This document shows positions 39,401-51,400 of a DNA stretch of 64,000 bases, piece by piece. The stretch's first letter is position 1. Every line of letters begins with the position of its first letter. The stretch lies in assembly GCA_041615815.1 (NCBI GenBank), contig JBFJCP010000001.1, positions 64,001 through 128,000 of the forward strand, in the 5' to 3' direction. This stretch comes from Gemmatimonadales bacterium. Its GTDB lineage: Bacteria; Gemmatimonadota; Gemmatimonadetes; Gemmatimonadales; GWC2-71-9. The position numbers are program-made.

Positions 39401-42400
39401 CTATCACCAGCGGCGTGCCATCCTCGCGGCGCTCCGCGGCCGGGACTGTCTGGCCGTCTTGCCCACCGGCGGCGGCAAGTCACTTTGCTATCAGATTCCA
39501 GGACTTGTGCGCCCTGGCCTCACCGTGATCGTCTCTCCCCTCGTGTCGCTGATGCAGGACCAGGTAGCGGCGCTTCGCGCGCGCCACCTCCCGGCAGCGT
39601 ACGTGGCTGGCGACCAGCCCCGGGTATCCCAGGAGGCTGTGTGGAGCGGCGTCCGAAGCGGGCGCGTGAAGCTGCTGTATGTAGCGCCCGAGCGCTTGCG
39701 TCAGACGGCCGAACGCGTGGGCCGTCGTCCGGTCGGACTCTTGGCCGTGGACGAAGCACACTGCATCTCGGAGTGGGGACACGAGTTTCGACCCACGTAT
39801 CGCGGCTTGGGCCAATACGTCCAGGTCTTGGGCACGCCACCGGTCATGGCGGTGACCGCGACGGCCACGCCGGCCACGCGATGGGAGATCGTACGCAGCC
39901 TCCGCCTCAAGCGACCGGTCATGGCGCTACGCTCGTTCGATCGGCCCAACCTGTGGTTGGGGGTGCGGTGTTTTGCCAACGCCGCGAGCAGGCTCGGAAC
40001 CACCGCGCGAATGCTACGCCGCGTGGCCGACGGAGTGGCGTTGGTGTATGCCCCTACCCGGCATCGGACGGATGATGTCGCGGCCGTGCTTCGCTGGTGG
40101 GGGATCCGAGCGTGGCCCTATCACGCCGGACTGCCCGCGCATGCCCGGCGCCGACTGCTCTACCGCTTTCGGTGCGGCGAGCTCCGGGTGGTGGTCGCCA
40201 CCAGCGCTTTCGGGATGGGGATCGACCGCCCCGACGTGCGCCTCGTGATCCATCTTGGCCTCCCGGTGCGTCCGGAGGCCTACTATCAGCAGGCCGGCCG
40301 CGCGGGCCGTGACGGTGAGCCAGCGGCATGTTGGCTATTCTGGGAAAAGGGGGACCTGCGGCTTGCGTCCCGCTTGGCTGCCCGGGGCGGCGCGGACGGA
40401 CCCGGAACCGTTGCGGCACGCGAGTCTCGCGCCCGAGCGCTCGCCACGATGGAACGGTACGTCAGGGGTCGACAATGCCGTCGACGAGCGCTCCTTGCCT
40501 ATCTCGGGGAGTCGCTCTCACGGTGTGCCGGGTGTGACCGTTGCGCCCGACGCGGGATTCGTGATCCGCTGCGGTACGGCAGTCCCACCTCGAACCGTTG
40601 ACGCGACATGCTCGACCGCTTCTTCCAATTGCACGCGCATCAAACCACGGTTCGCCGCGAGATCGGCGCCGGGGCCACCACCTTCGTCACGATGTCGTAC
40701 ATCATTTTCGTGCAACCGGTGGTCCTGGGGGCCGCGGGCATGGATCCGGGCGCGGTGATGACGGCGACCTGTCTGTCCAGTGCTCTGGCCACGCTCCTGA
40801 TGGGGCTCCTCGCCAATTATCCCATTGCTCTAGCGCCAGGAATGGGGCACAACTTCTTCTTCACCTACACGGTCGTGATCCTGTTGGGATACACCTGGCA
40901 GCAAGCGCTCGGTGCCATCTTCGTTTCCGGGGTATTGTTCATCGTTCTGGCCTTCATCGGGTTTCGCGAGCGGTTATTGAATGCCGTCCCGGCGGCGTTG
41001 CGCAACGGCATTGCAGCAGGCATTGGCCTCTTGATTGCGCTGGTGGGACTCCAGTGGGGCGGTATCGTCGTCGATAGCCCCGGAACACTCGTGCAGCTGG
41101 GCTCCTTGGGGTCACTCCCGGTGTTGCTCACCGTGCTGGGACTCGCGGTTACGTCGATCCTGCTCGCCTGGCGGGTGCGGGCCGCTATTCTCCTCGGGAT
41201 CGTGACCACCCTGGTGGTCGGGCTGGCGCTGGGAGTGACGGAGTTTCACGGAGTCGTGGGACGTCCTCCAGCGCTGCGCGCCACATTCCTCCAGCTGGAC
41301 GTGCTTGGGGCGCTCCAGACCGGGATGCTCTCCGTCATCTTCGTGTTCTTCTTCCTCGATCTGTTCGACACGGTCGGGACCCTCATTGGCGTCACGCAGG
41401 AGGCGGGGTTGGTGCGGGAGGACGGCACGCTTCCTCGGGCCCGCGGCGCACTCTTGGCCGACGCCATCGGCACCGTGAGCGGAACGCTCCTGGGCACGTC
41501 GACGATCACGAGCTACGTGGAGAGTGCCGCCGGTGTGACCGCCGGAGGCCGTACCGGCCTAGCCAGCGTCGTTACGGCACTCCTCTTCGTGAGTGCGCTG
41601 TTTTGTGCACCGTTGGTGGCGATGATCGGTCGGGGCGTACCGATGGGCGAGGGGCGTGTGCTCTATCCGATGGTCGCACCGGCGTTGATCCTCGTGGGGA
41701 GCTACATGATGAAAAGCGTTGTGCGGATCGAGTGGTCGGATCCGAGCGAAGCGATCCCGGCATTCCTCACGATTCTCGTCATGCCCCTGACCTTCAGCAT
41801 TACCGAGGGCATCGCGTTCGGATTCATTGCCTATGTCGTGCTCAAAGGGGCACGTGGTCGGCTTCGTGAGGTACCCCTGCTCATACAAGTGTTCGCCGGG
41901 TTGTTCGTCCTCCGTTACCTGTTGCTCTCGTGAAGGTGCAGGGGGTGTCGATCGGCTTGCCAGCTTACCGCATGCCAAGCATCATTGTGGCGTGAGTTCC
42001 CCCGCGAAACGCGAGGTCGCGACCTCGGCTCGAAGCAGACGGAGGGGCATTACCGAGCGGCTGAGGAGACACGCACCGCCGCGCCGTGGGCCTCTCTTCC
42101 GGCTTTTTTGGCCGATCACGGCCTATCTGCTCACCAACATCACGGTCACGTTCTTCTGGGTCGTATTCCGGGTGTTCAATCGGACCGTGGTCACGGGCTT
42201 GGAACACATCGACGACGAGCCCAACACGATGTTACTGTCGAATCATCAGTCCATGATCGACAGCTTCTTGGTGGGCCTCGTCGCCTATTTCCCACGGGCC
42301 ATGTGGAAACCGCATCTCTTGCCGTGGAATCCGGCCGCCGAAGAGAATTTTTACAGGACGCCCGTGTTACGATGGTTTGCAGACAACTGGAAGTGCATTC

Positions 42401-48400: not shown

Positions 48401-51400
48401 TCCTCGATGAGCTCGCTGAACTTGGCGTCGATGCTGAGTACGTCGACAAACTCCCCGTGCACGGGGCAGGTCTTCCGCATCAGAATCTGACCGTCTTCCT
48501 CGACGATGGTCGCCCGGATCTCGCCCGGGTGCCCATGGACCAACTCGGCGAGATCCCGATCGCCCCTGATAATGGCTTCTCGCGTCTCCTTGACGCATCG
48601 GGGGCAGAGCGAATCGGTCTCCCGCGGCCATCCGAGCGGCGGACGGCTGCGCTCGTAACTCTTGAGCAACGGCCCGGGAGCCCACTGTGGATGGATCGAC
48701 TCGTTCTCGGGAACTCGGGTGTTGACGGACTGGAACGCCCGCCACCCGAGATCGGCTGCGTGGCGGATCGCGGCCGCCAGTACTTCGCTCATGGCACCTC
48801 CAGATGGGAGCAAAGTGTCTTACGACGCCTGACCCCACCCCTCCGGCGCTTGCTGCGGCTGTACCAGGGCGCCGACCGGAGAAAATCGGCACGCAGGGCG
48901 GGTGGTTTTCATAAGGGGCGCACGGTGAGAATGGTTCCCACGGTACGCCCTGCAAACTTGCCCGAGTATGACGCTTAGCACCCCTCGCGTCAAGGCCCGG
49001 GTTGGCTCTGCGGAACGGCCGCGGGAAGGGGTATTCCCGCCTCGAAAAGACGCCGTTCGACCTCGGGCGCTAACCGCGCGCTCGGCTCGACCCACCGTAG
49101 CCCTTCGCCGAGCAGCGCACGCATCCGTTGCTGTGTTGTGCGGCCCGTTACGTCGTCGAATTTCGACGCGAGCCCTTGGAGCCATGGCGCCGACGCCACG
49201 AGCTTCGTGGCGCCCACTTCCGATGGTTGGGTGTGCGGCCGGCCCGAGGGGAGCGTGAGCACGCTTTGGCCGTCGCCGACATAGGTATACCAGGCCATCC
49301 GCACCGTGGGTGTCACACCCACCGCTTCGAACAACACGACGTCCTCCGCCTGCGGAGCACACTGCAACACCCGGTCTCGAACGAAATCGATTGCGTCGCC
49401 ATGGCTGAATTCCACGCGGTCCAACGTCCCGTCCGCACGAGCGGCGTAATGGATCCCTGCCACGTCGTCGGGCTCGGCCTTCCGGGCCTCACCGCGCCAA
49501 TTCTGCGCCCGCTCCGGGGTATCGAGGACCTGCGATCGATCCCACAGAAACCCGTGGCCCACGATACCGTTGGTTCCCTCGTCGCTTCGGTCGGGTAGGA
49601 TGATGGTGTCCGGAATGCCCGCCGCCTGCCGAAGGGCGAGTAGTCGCGTCGCACTGACCGCATCGGTGGCCACGGCAACCCGGGCACCGCTGTCGCGCAC
49701 GGCCTCGCCCAACTGGTCGTCGGAGAGATCGTGCGACAGCCCCACCGGAACGCCCCGGAGTCCCTGTACGGCAAAATCGACGTAGAGCCACATCGGCCGT
49801 AACGGTCCGAATACAGCCACGCGGTCCTCCGCACCGACCTGGAGATTCCCACTGAGAAAGAGGGCAACCCGAATCACCTGGCGATCGAATCGCCAATCGG
49901 GATCGCTGACCCATTGCTCGTCCGCCCAATGCCGAACGACGGCGGGACGTGCGTGCTCGCGCATGGCGAGATAGAACAGGGCATTGACCGTTTCCGGAAT
50001 GGTGTGGAGCGGTCGAACCTCACGGTCCCGCGCCTCACCGGTCGTGATATACAGCAGCATCTGGACTCAACCTCTCGGAATGGAATGCGGCTTCAAGGCC
50101 TGCCACAATGATTCGATCGTCGGATCTGTGATCTGCCACCGCTCCATGGCATGAATGAGCGTCCGAACATACTCGACGCCGGTCCCCACGGTGCCGTGGG
50201 CCGCGCGGAAGGCGTCCCCCAGGGCGCCGTTCTCGACACTCCAGGGCGGAGCCGCCTGGACCGCTGGCTTCGTGACCCAGACGAGCGCCGTGGCACGAGT
50301 TCCGTCACGCAGGTCGATCCGCACCTTCTTACGCGCAAACTCTGCCTGACCTTCCCGTCGCTCGATCTTGCGCACCACGTCTTTCTCATCGCTCTTCGGG
50401 ATCTCGAACGCGACGCCCTCACACTCTCCTCCGCTCGATAACCCCAGAATGGGCGAGGGGTGGGTCGGGGTTCCCCACCGTTTCGTGGACGAGTGGTTGA
50501 ACGACCGGTGATAGCCGGTGAGGCGGGCTGGTGTCCCTCGGTAGAACCTCATGGCGTTGTCGCCCATGAGACTGCCGTAAGCGAAGATCCACGTCACGCC
50601 CAAATCCTTCCCGCTCCAGACAGTTGCGAAGCTCGAAACCCGTTGGGGTGCTTGCGGATTGCGTCGAGCGGCTTAGTCTACTACCCGAAGGCCGATTTTC
50701 AAGGGTCCCCTGCGCCTGCACTTACCCACACCACGCAGACCATGATGCATCGTGCCAATGTCCTGGACGTCGTCCGAGCCGTGACGCAGGTGGCGACCAA
50801 CCACCCTCAGGTGTCGGTGTGGTGGTATGTGCCGCGGCTCCTGGACAACCCCAACATCGAGCTCCTGGTGAAGGTTGAGGATGAGCACCCCACCGACCTC
50901 GATGCGATCGCGCGCGAGGTCGACGCCTTGCTCGATGGCGCCAACGTCACCGTGAAGCGTCATGCGGACGGGGACGGGGAACGCCGGCTGTTCCGCGTGC
51001 TCAGTCACAACCAAGCCGCCGTCGACAGCGCCTCCTAGCCGCTCCTCTCTCGAGACCGACCCAGCCACCGCCGGCTGCGAGACCGCCCGCGGGTCATGTC
51101 CTCTTTTGAGCACAAGATTTCCGGCAGAATGCGACCTGGCGTAGACAACCTCGGGCCTGGCGTGCAACGACGTAATTCCTTGATAGATATGAAATTAGGC
51201 CGGAGCGCCTCGCGGGCGGAACTTCTGGCACAGAATTTCCATTTAGGGGATGCAAAGAAAAACTGCGGCGTGCTGAACGTCTTGTCGCCAGGCAAGAAAT
51301 CTCGTCGGGAGGGGACGAGCGGGACCACACCAAAGCCCGGTTCAGCACGCCGCAGCGCTTTTTGTTTCGCTACGGTCTTCACAATATGTCACATGGCGCG

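Follow-up and report, generated by a model that had tools for sequence, protein, structure and literature searches.

A Tes-like radical SAM gene linked to an HpnR-like B12-radical SAM gene in a Gemmatimonadales bacterium: a candidate pair for modifying membrane-spanning lipids

The window analysed here, a stretch of 64,000 nucleotides from a Gemmatimonadales bacterium, encodes a homolog of Tes, the tetraether synthase known from archaea, and, beside it, a B12-binding radical SAM enzyme resembling the hopanoid methylase HpnR, which raises the question of whether these genes serve methyl-branched membrane-spanning lipids. A first-pass annotation had proposed such a pathway, and the genes that it named all lie where it placed them. 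On the minus strand, a row of four genes starts with a ChaC/GGACT-like gene (50067..50603; 178 aa; PF04752, 77.9 bits), followed by a short ANL (AMP-binding) N-domain gene (48990..50060; 356 aa; PF00501, 58.2 bits), the Tes/GDGT-MAS-like radical SAM gene (46933..48813; an ORF of 626 aa matching NF045702, PF23545 and PF04055) and the HpnR-like B12-binding radical SAM gene, g00100 (45227..46702; matching TIGR04367, PF02310 and PF04055). The ORF of g00100 reaches up to 46837; its start is probably at 46702, which would give a protein of 491 aa, a length also seen in P0001 and its relatives. The remaining neighbours are an ORF of 234 aa on the opposite, plus strand (44458..45162), g00098 on the minus strand, which encodes a B12-like radical SAM protein of 530 aa (42764..44356), and a convergent PlsC/LPAT-type acyltransferase gene on the plus strand (41992..42783, with an ORF from 41827; PF01553, 62.4 bits).

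Neighbourhoods were counted over the best 80 Tes-like loci. An AMP-like gene stood beside the Tes-like gene in 37 of them (36 in the first-pass annotation) and a B12-radical SAM gene in 27 (previously 26); 15 of the latter showed 53-84% identity, two from Acidobacteriota at 63% among them, as had been reported. In 26 loci, the same number as before, a ChaC-like relative sat immediately upstream of the AMP-like gene; 13 of these loci were from Gemmatimonadota and 13 from Acidobacteriota. The LPAT gene, in whose translation an HX4D motif is visible, adjoined Tes in only 2 of the 80 loci (L001 and L004), and g00098 likewise in only 2. The g00098 protein matched PF04055 with 33.9 bits and PF02310 with 20.3 bits, the latter below its cut-off; of 151 genomes from the phylum, 40 carried a member of its family, many of these without Tes, and its relatives made up more than 120 clusters at an identity of at least 67%. 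The 234-aa ORF matched no Pfam or NCBIfam family, and L001 and L004 were the only loci with relatives (39-45% identity) in the corresponding position. Of the cluster as originally drawn, the Tes-like, HpnR-like, AMP-like and ChaC-like genes were retained, whereas the LPAT gene and g00098 were not. The conserved unit is the four-gene minus-strand row of a ChaC-like protein, a P-loop-less ANL N-domain, a Tes-like protein and an HpnR-like B12-radical SAM protein.

A six-frame search of the genome revealed one Tes homolog (NF045702, 311.7 bits). The protein itself matched NF045702 over model positions 2-483 of 486 (311.3 bits, E 1e-92), below the equivalog cut-off of 450 bits, and residues 99-581 aligned with residues 36-511 of the solved GDGT-MAS (PDB 7TOL; E 4.9e-64). 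Both the zinc ribbon (PF23545, 50.6 bits against a cut-off of 27) and the radical SAM core (PF04055, 64.2 bits) were present, and the description of this homolog as full length was thus upheld. Its start is placed by its relatives at 48792. The CX3CX2C motif was kept, NRCNMMCNPC aligning with NRCNLNCPIC of 7TOL. Among 15 orthologs, 12 cysteines and one histidine were invariant (C70, C73, C116, H119, C177, C181, C184, C237, C420, C422, C426, C543 and C557), and some of the last six cysteines, candidate ligands of two auxiliary [4Fe-4S] clusters, aligned with cysteines of 7TOL. By homology, the protein is a candidate tail-coupling enzyme. According to PMC11868695, activity has been demonstrated for no bacterial Tes homolog, and PMC13159169 reports that of 14 acidobacteria producing iso-diabolic acid only 3 have Tes homologs. 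No cultured carrier was found among the best 80 loci or the best 120 proteins.

The partner of the Tes-like protein, g00100, combines a B12-binding domain (PF02310, 70.5 bits) with a radical SAM domain (PF04055, 67.8 bits). It matched TIGR04367 with 355.1 bits (E 5.2e-106) and did not reach the cut-off of 650, whereas a true HpnR representative, P0139, scored 788.7 bits and shared 38-41% identity with the g00100 family. In two trees, built with FastTree and IQ-TREE, the family was monophyletic with a support of 99, and together with P0139 and one archaeal protein it formed a clade with support values of 97-98. GGHHAS and RGCPFDCNFC motifs were common to the family, P0139 and the archaeal protein, and GGHHAS and CX3CX2C were invariant and shared with P0139. 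The nearest relative outside the family was the archaeal P0121 (named Ca. Methanosuratincola), at 47% identity. The window's genome also holds one cobalamin riboswitch.

The distribution of the two genes was examined in 401 Gemmatimonadota genomes, with thresholds of at least 53% identity for the HpnR-like family and at least 71% for the Tes-like clade. The former was found in 14 genomes and the latter in 15, and all 14 HpnR-like holders were among the 15 Tes-like holders, a co-occurrence count that overstates the evidence because related genomes are not independent. In 13 of the 14 holders, the two genes lay 82-1980 bp apart on one contig. The pair was patchy, both genes being present in 2 of 24 genomes of one genus, and the linkage was kept across three arrangements (downstream on the same strand, divergent, or convergent) and in at least four separate lineages of the Tes tree. 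A functional link between the two genes is therefore better supported than the first-pass annotation could show. Moreover, the remaining half of the Tes tree has a second, unrelated B12-radical SAM family, which lay 31-252 bp from the Tes gene in 9 of 10 loci there, so the pairing of Tes with a B12-radical SAM enzyme recurs; archaea also pair them (10.1101/2025.10.20.683597; PMC11214058). Among the best 80 loci, the g00100 family was missing from 27 of the 29 in Acidobacteriota and from all 8 in Myxococcota, and in three Pyrinomonadaceae- or Pyrinomonas-labelled genomes with a Tes-like gene it was found nowhere in the genome.

Public annotations suggest another role for g00100: some of its relatives are named 'hopanoid C-3 methylase HpnR' by JGI and NCBI, HpnR was its best NCBIfam match, and the family groups with true HpnR. 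However, the score falls far short of the HpnR cut-off, and a search for squalene-hopene cyclase (PF13243) returned no match in the window's genome (95.73% complete), in line with the first-pass annotation. A full-length cyclase was present in only 4 of the 14 HpnR-like holders and not in the other 10; conversely, only 4 of 14 genomes with the cyclase held the family. Thus, the family occurs independently of hopanoid synthesis, the lack of the cyclase contradicts a hopanoid C-3 methylase in this genome, in agreement with the first-pass annotation, and we consider a true hopanoid methylase extremely improbable. The phylum-wide co-occurrence of the HpnR-like and Tes-like genes, the sparse hopanoid cyclase among holders and the monophyly of the HpnR-like family beside true HpnR are new here. 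Taken on its sequence and context, the g00100 family is read as a Tes-linked lipid-modifying enzyme, most likely a C-methylase.

We tentatively favour the explanation, for which the chances fall a little short of even, that the Tes-like enzyme couples membrane-lipid tails into an iso-diabolic-acid-type lipid and that the B12 enzyme methylates the chain. In this model, the Tes-like enzyme would link two iso-branched alkyl chains in membrane glycerolipids at their terminal carbons, by means of its radical SAM and auxiliary clusters and its N-terminal metal ribbon, and an iso-diabolic-acid-type membrane-spanning lipid would result. In a cultivated representative of the phylum, iso-C15:0 dominates the fatty acids at 31.6-43.4% (PMC11651109). 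Before or after coupling, the B12 enzyme would methylate an unactivated sp3 carbon of the chain, a reaction of the kind that HpnR carries out on hopanoids and that Gmm, Cgm and Pgm carry out on archaeal tetraethers. What we infer here is that the substrate is a lipid, that its tails are coupled, that the B12 enzyme methylates instead of catalysing another B12-radical reaction, and where the methyl group goes. It is also conceivable, but rather unlikely, that the lipid is the same and that the B12 enzyme forms cyclopentane rings as Grs does, a double bond as Ted does, or a cross-link. The ring synthase Grs and the desaturase Ted are archaeal B12-radical SAM relatives of the methylases (10.1101/2025.10.20.683597 and PMC13459092), sequence does not separate these activities, and the linkage evidence fits them equally well; on the other hand, HpnR, the only characterised member of the clade with 97-98 support, is a methylase, and so is TokK, the best PDB match of g00100 by sequence, albeit a weak one (E 8.6e-12).

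The two other members of the conserved row bear on whether the substrate is a membrane lipid at all. The ANL-like protein covered positions 27-270 of the 384 of the PF00501 profile, without the P-loop and without the C-terminal lid. Its relatives, found in three phyla, were mostly 300-480 aa long; their P-loop region was not conserved, and PDW..DR and DT.ERA were among their invariant residues. An AF2 model (pLDDT 87.5) had the fold of the ANL large domain (TM 0.62-0.69). Although conserved, the ChaC-like and ANL-like partners fit no published lipid-coupling scheme. The four genes might instead serve to produce or modify another hydrophobic small molecule: the ANL-like and ChaC-like proteins would then be enzymes of its pathway, and the Tes-like protein would form a different C-C bond. 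These two most conserved partners are not explained by lipid coupling, the Tes score lies below its cut-off while the TrsS model (NF045646) also matches with 209 bits, and no lipid gene is conserved nearby, the Latescibacterota neighbours being tig, clpP and clpX. Nevertheless, we regard a non-lipid substrate as improbable: a protein with neither P-loop nor C-terminal domain is unlikely to adenylate, the match to Tes spans the full length and takes in the zinc ribbon, and the clade was found in MAGs labelled Pyrinomonadaceae and Vicinamibacteria, groups with cultured producers of iso-diabolic acid (PMC4644332; PMC13159169 Table S21). Under lipid coupling, our guess is that the ANL-like and ChaC-like proteins are accessory proteins handling the substrate or the head group.

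A further question is whether the product would be a true brGDGT. PF09989, which we take to be the marker of PlsA/Ger, had no match in the window's genome at its 95.73% completeness, while a Thermotoga maritima control was positive. NAD_binding_4 (PF07993) gave only weak, generic matches of at most 45.7 bits, so the search with these two families did not recover the ester-to-ether step of the printed brGDGT pathway, which is ascribed to Ger/PlsA, ElbD or Agps. Because no known ether-forming enzyme was seen, an ester-bound product is more likely than a true brGDGT, and the tetraethers of the first-pass annotation found no support. It had further proposed g00100 as the enzyme that sets brGDGT methylation and soil Gemmatimonadota as a significant hidden source. 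Among 276 Acidobacteriota genomes, only 1, the seed genome itself, had the g00100 family, which was found in none of 51 genomes of a Pyrinomonadaceae-labelled family, and it is thus rare in groups with known brGDGT or iso-diabolic acid producers; given this rarity, and that of the Tes clade in Gemmatimonadota, g00100 cannot account in general for the methylation that the MBT proxy records. The sequencing runs covering almost the entire stretch carry the label marine metagenome, not soil. Every point for our preferred explanation applies to the full brGDGT reading as well, the available portions of the literature surveyed name no brGDGT or iso-diabolic acid methylase, and the pathway figure of Halamka 2022, according to its legend, leaves out C5/C6 methylation (PMC10087280). 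Even so, with the undetected ether step, the rarity of the family and the marine labels against it, we judge this reading very unlikely. Of methyl-branched membrane-spanning lipids as first proposed, the full-length Tes homolog, the non-hopanoid enzyme and their linkage remain, whereas the cluster as drawn, the tetraethers, the generality and the soil origin do not.

In our view, g00100 is therefore a good candidate for the methylase of one Tes-like lineage, and not "the" MBT gene. A bolder hypothesis, somewhat unlikely in our estimate, casts its family as the first mid-chain C-methylase acting on membrane-spanning lipids in bacteria, making 5- or 6-methyl iso-diabolic-type chains; the family would travel with the Tes-like gene in a small mobile cassette, spreading among Gemmatimonadota and into Acidobacteriota, and would have a common ancestry with archaeal lipid-modifying B12-radical SAM enzymes. 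If this were true, a gene could be assigned to one genetic route to the methylation behind brGDGT-type proxies, and the producers would include some Gemmatimonadota. The locus evidence does not support production of tetraether climate-proxy lipids itself, and g00100 offers a testable candidate for extra methylation of membrane-spanning lipids.

Among known systems, archaeal Tes/GDGT-MAS (MJ0619, 7TOL) resembles the window protein in its full-length alignment, the CX3CX2C motif, the N-terminal PF23545 zinc-ribbon/rubredoxin-like domain and conserved C-terminal cysteines. The window protein differs in its sub-cut-off score and in its host, a bacterium with fatty-acid lipids; its clade also has conserved additions at both ends, ~60 residues at the N-terminus and a GCGCH tail at the C-terminus. 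No PF09989 match was found here, unlike in the bacterial Mss and Ger system of Thermotoga and Thermoanaerobacter, to which the likeness, drawn by description, lies in the proposed end result, tail-to-tail coupling of fatty acyl chains; Mss is described as only remotely related to Tes (PMC13159169). With HpnR (TIGR04367), g00100 shares the B12-binding and radical SAM architecture, invariant motifs and a well-supported clade, and its presumed target, too, would be an unactivated sp3 carbon in a lipid; it differs in score and identity and in tracking the Tes-like gene, not squalene-hopene cyclase. The archaeal GDGT/GMGT methylases Gmm, Cgm (Saci_1785) and Pgm and the related Ted and Grs, compared by description only, are likewise B12-radical SAM enzymes that are encoded close to Tes or used with it and modify the tails of membrane-spanning lipids (PMC11214058, PMC13459092 and 10.1101/2025.10.20.683597).

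The module lies on the minus strand of the window, from whose start all coordinates are counted. In transcription order, it consists of a ChaC/GGACT-like gene (50603-50067), a gene for a short ANL-like protein of 356 aa (50060-48990) that matches the AMP-binding profile over its first two thirds only, the Tes/GDGT-MAS homolog (48813-46933), and, approximately 230 bp past this Tes-like gene, the HpnR-like B12-binding radical SAM gene g00100 (46702-45227). The start of g00100 was set at 46702 by its 491-aa relatives, while the ORF itself is open to 46837. Beyond g00100 lie a plus-strand ORF of 234 aa without a family, the radical SAM gene g00098 (44356-42764, minus strand), whose B12-like domain is weak, and a convergent gene for a PlsC-type acyltransferase (41992-42783). 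One flank carries the genes for RecQ and a xanthine/uracil permease, the other those for NfeD and the flotillin FloA (51362-53866, plus strand). NfeD and FloA-like proteins belong to membrane microdomains, and their genes stand just upstream of the module on the opposite strand; this adjacency was seen at 1 of 80 loci and is probably coincidental. Because the window is GC-rich (GC 0.60-0.69), many of its ORFs are spurious, and the real genes were picked by family scans. A promoter scan of 41500-51500 returned 5 promoter-like sites where 1.9 +/- 1.4 were expected, and a terminator scan of the same region gave a count at chance level; neither was given evidential weight.

Family and PDB searches reproduced all of the scores quoted in the first-pass annotation, as well as the absence of a squalene-hopene cyclase from this genome (95.73% complete). 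To define the conserved unit, we fetched the best 80 Tes-like loci (56-93% identity, all from MAGs), which come from Gemmatimonadota, Acidobacteriota, Latescibacterota, Myxococcota, Bacteroidota, Calditrichota, Ignavibacteriota and KSB1, and counted neighbors by tblastn with the window proteins. A relative of the ANL-like protein was found at 37 of the 80 loci, a B12-radical SAM gene at 27 and a ChaC-like relative at 26. The acyltransferase, g00098 and the 234-aa ORF were each present at 2 loci, in close relatives only. Homologs of g00098 occurred in 40 of 151 Gemmatimonadota genomes (59-72% identity; one of the 40, G057, is flagged unpublished), among them 10 of the 11 sampled from a genus where just 2 of 24 genomes have the Tes-like gene; in Tes-bearing genomes they were located on other contigs. 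The g00098 family is independent of Tes, and the cluster originally drawn, which included both g00098 and the acyltransferase, was too wide. The conserved core is the ChaC-like, ANL-like and Tes-like genes, which a B12-radical SAM gene joins in some lineages. An all-against-all clustering of ORFs from the 80 loci revealed no additional conserved partner; the largest clusters proved to be shadows of the Tes gene, either out of frame or antisense, in GC-rich DNA and were rejected. The g00098 proteins themselves make up an orphan group of B12-like radical SAM proteins that is both large and highly conserved, with more than 120 clusters at 67% identity or above; members are named from Rhodothermales and Longimicrobiales as well.

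The ANL-like and ChaC-like genes were confined to the Gemmatimonadota-Myxococcota-Vicinamibacteria half of the Tes tree. The ANL-like relatives at the 37 loci are mostly 300-480 aa long, and the short form is not a truncation peculiar to this genome; at several loci, the ANL-like stop and the Tes start overlap. These proteins show no conservation in the P-loop region, while PDW..DR, DT.ERA and DG are invariant. A confident AF2 model (pLDDT 87.5) showed the ANL large-domain fold, a fold search with it recovered generic adenylating enzymes only, and an Atlas search recovered short AMP-binding clusters only. In Latescibacterota, the neighbors of the Tes-like gene include trigger factor, ClpP, ClpX and a GTPase. 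Two loci titled Gemmatimonadota, L039 and L042, have Tes-like proteins nested within the Latescibacterota clade and neighboring ORFs in the same clusters as those of Latescibacterota loci (trigger factor, ClpP, ClpX), indicating either a binning or label problem or a recent transfer of a large block.

To reveal the distribution of the g00100 family, we searched an even sample of the phylum, 401 Gemmatimonadota genomes. Of these, 14 held orthologs of g00100 (53-83% identity) and 15 held Tes-like orthologs (71-92% identity); all 14 holders of the g00100 family fell within the 15, and the remaining 386 genomes had neither gene. In 13 of the 14 holders, the two genes were 82-1980 bp apart on one contig, and in the fourteenth both were on short contigs. 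The pair is patchily distributed, being found in 2 of 24 genomes of one genus and 1 of 94 of one family, a pattern that speaks for joint gain or loss. Full-length squalene-hopene cyclases (PF13243, at least 398 bits) were encoded by 14 of the 401 genomes, yet just 4 of the 14 holders had one. Gene order also varies: the g00100 family lies downstream on the same strand in the window and at L001, L004, L023, L025 and L035, diverges from the ChaC-ANL-Tes row at L013, L015, L022, L024 and others, and is convergent at L014, L021 and L068. In the Tes-like tree, loci with the g00100 family occupied at least four separately supported places, and parsimony required 6 changes against a shuffled mean of 14.8, a figure that, like the co-occurrence counts, overstates the evidence because related genomes are not independent. 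The clustering of a Tes-like with an HpnR-like gene, as first reported, is a real observation, and the linkage is well supported and hard to explain without a shared function. Unusually clean comparative evidence indicates that g00100 acts together with the Tes-like enzyme rather than on hopanoids.

Among the Acidobacteriota, the MAG G402 (source of loci L025 and L048; contig C3) carries three Tes-like copies (72, 66 and 54% identity), with the B12 gene beside the 72% copy only and ANL-like and ChaC-like genes beside the 66% copy. The copy beside the B12 gene grouped with L023, a locus from Gemmatimonadaceae, and stood apart from the remaining Acidobacteriota loci; the pair looks like a transferred two-gene cassette. 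In three genomes of one Gemmatimonadota genus, 37-38% relatives of g00100 occurred without Tes and without the cyclase; the one that was scanned scored 241.9 bits.

A search of 1.84 billion representative proteins with g00100 returned 656 at E <1e-30. The HpnR model was applied to 77 of the 150 matches listed, namely the full-length ones among the best 81, and its NCBIfam cut-off was reached by P0139, the true HpnR representative, alone (788.7 bits). Phylogenetic trees (FastTree with 163 rows and an IQ-TREE quick tree with 54 rows) were built without Gmm, Cgm, Pgm, Ted and Grs sequences. The Tes-linked g00100 family was monophyletic (support 99) and formed one clade with P0139 and P0121 (support 98 and 97); the order among the three was left open, with HpnR on a long branch. 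P0121, accession MEM4658493.1, which NCBI names from the archaeon Candidatus Methanosuratincola, shares 47% identity with g00100 and is its closest relative outside the family among the matches listed, which hints at an exchange of lipid-modifying B12-radical SAM enzymes between domains. All three share GGHHAS in the B12 domain and the cluster motif RGCPFDCNFC. Another relative, P0155 (967 aa), fuses a PfaD-family enoyl reductase of polyunsaturated fatty acid/polyketide synthesis to an HpnR-like B12-radical SAM domain 37% identical to g00100, a further tie of this radiation to acyl-chain chemistry.

Acidobacteriota relatives of g00100 (37-42% identity) were rejected as counterparts: they form a separate clade, and among 9 genomes with 38-42% matches a Tes-like gene was found in 2, on another contig. 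Seven Acidobacteriota loci (L093-L099, from G523, G583, G703, G535, G459, G626 and G476) scored 304-332 bits with the HpnR model, below the cut-off, and most genomes with their clade lack a Tes-like gene; HpnR is probably the name that public pipelines would give these proteins too. Several relatives of g00100 carry that name, and public annotation is corrected here.

The methylase reading of g00100 is based on its nearest characterised enzyme, a lipid C-methylase, and on these sequence grounds g00100 is a putative C-methylase. By sequence, the best solved structure for g00100 is the methylase TokK, a weak match. A ring synthase and a desaturase are among the archaeal B12-radical SAM enzymes related to the GDGT methylases (10.1101/2025.10.20.683597; PMC13459092). 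Another chemistry on the same lipid is a less likely alternative, and a substrate other than a lipid is about equally improbable. The most likely reading, held at somewhat short of even confidence, is tentatively that the module makes modified membrane-spanning lipids and has a C-methylase dedicated to them.

The wider claims fared less well. The window's genome had no match to PF09989, the marker of PlsA/Ger, although a Thermotoga control was positive, and its NAD_binding_4 matches were weak. This leaves ether bonds, and with them the proposed tetraethers, without support, and it is simpler to expect an ester-bound product. The g00100 family was found in 1 of 276 sampled Acidobacteriota genomes, namely the seed genome G402 (two weak matches were in genomes flagged unpublished), in 0 of 51 genomes of the Pyrinomonadaceae-labelled family of G401, and in 0 of 3 Tes-bearing MAGs labelled Pyrinomonadaceae or Pyrinomonas. 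It is rare where methylated lipids are known, and these counts speak against g00100 as the general methylase behind the MBT proxy. Strains of Acidobacteria subdivision 4 reportedly make 5-methyl iso-diabolic acid, to which we gave no weight. Nor was a soil source borne out: the sequencing runs with 96-98% of the sampled words of 45227-50603 were labelled marine metagenome (two studies), two soil-labelled runs held 26-32%, and no RNA run was among those listed.

Bacterial Tes homologs have already been published as brGDGT candidates (PMC8941075, PMC10087280), bacterial gms genes that cluster with tes or mss have been described (PMC11214058), and some Tes-like relatives are already named 'tetraether lipid synthase' in IMG. 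Among the matches listed, the passages searched named no brGDGT or iso-diabolic acid methylase and linked no HpnR-like gene to Tes. Gemmatimonadota were absent from the texts and readable supplements searched, save for the supplements of Sahonero-Canavesi 2022, which include them among phyla with Ger homologs and not in the Mss list; other sources may name them. 'Gemmatimon' did not occur in the readable supplement files of Zeng 2022 or in the supplements of Garcia 2024 and of the Black Sea paper. The degree of methylation of bacterial branched tetraethers underlies a widely used soil and lake palaeothermometer, and the module offers a concrete gene pair for co-expression. Its reach is limited: beyond a few lineages of Gemmatimonadota the g00100 family is seldom found, and this genome has no visible route to ether bonds.

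The Tes-like clade was found in 15 of the 401 Gemmatimonadota genomes, with a 52-53% clade in 4 more and a 34-38% clade in 18, and among the 80 loci it is also carried by MAGs labelled Pyrinomonadaceae and Vicinamibacteria. Organism-level hints are mixed. Iso-diabolic acid is made by cultured Pyrinomonas methylaliphatogenes and Luteitalea pratensis (PMC4644332; PMC13159169 Table S21). In Table S21, L. pratensis and K. versatilis are credited with a Tes homolog and P. methylaliphatogenes with none, and by the stringent criteria of that paper just 3 of 14 iso-diabolic-acid-producing acidobacteria have one (PMC13159169). According to PMC11868695, activity has been demonstrated for no bacterial Tes homolog.

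A second B12-radical SAM family, unrelated to g00100, adjoins the Tes-like gene in Latescibacterota, Bacteroidota, Calditrichota, KSB1 and unclassified MAGs. These loci belong to the opposite half of the Tes tree, which also takes in Ignavibacteriota, and the distance to Tes is 31-252 bp in nine of them and 2248 bp in a tenth (L003, L006, L028, L033, L049, L066, L067, L070, L074 and L080). The best NCBIfam match of this second family was BchE (191-210 bits), and its members formed a separate clade (support 100). The pairing of Tes with a B12-radical SAM enzyme thus recurs in bacteria, as it does in archaea, and involves two unrelated B12 families. The Tes-like protein aligned to positions 2-483 of 486 of the NCBIfam Tes model NF045702, scoring below the equivalog cut-off, and to the solved GDGT-MAS (7TOL) across 476 residues, and it has the zinc-ribbon domain named after GDGT-MAS. 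The ribbon residues (C70, C73, C116, H119), the radical SAM cluster (C177, C181, C184) and C237, C420, C422, C426, C543 and C557 are kept in all 15 orthologs, whose alignment is strikingly conserved across phyla (mean column identity 67%). This clade also has a conserved N-terminal extension of approximately 60 residues, with W24, F27, Q28, N31 and W44 among its invariant positions, and ends in a near-invariant GCGCH; both lie outside the alignments to 7TOL and NF045702.
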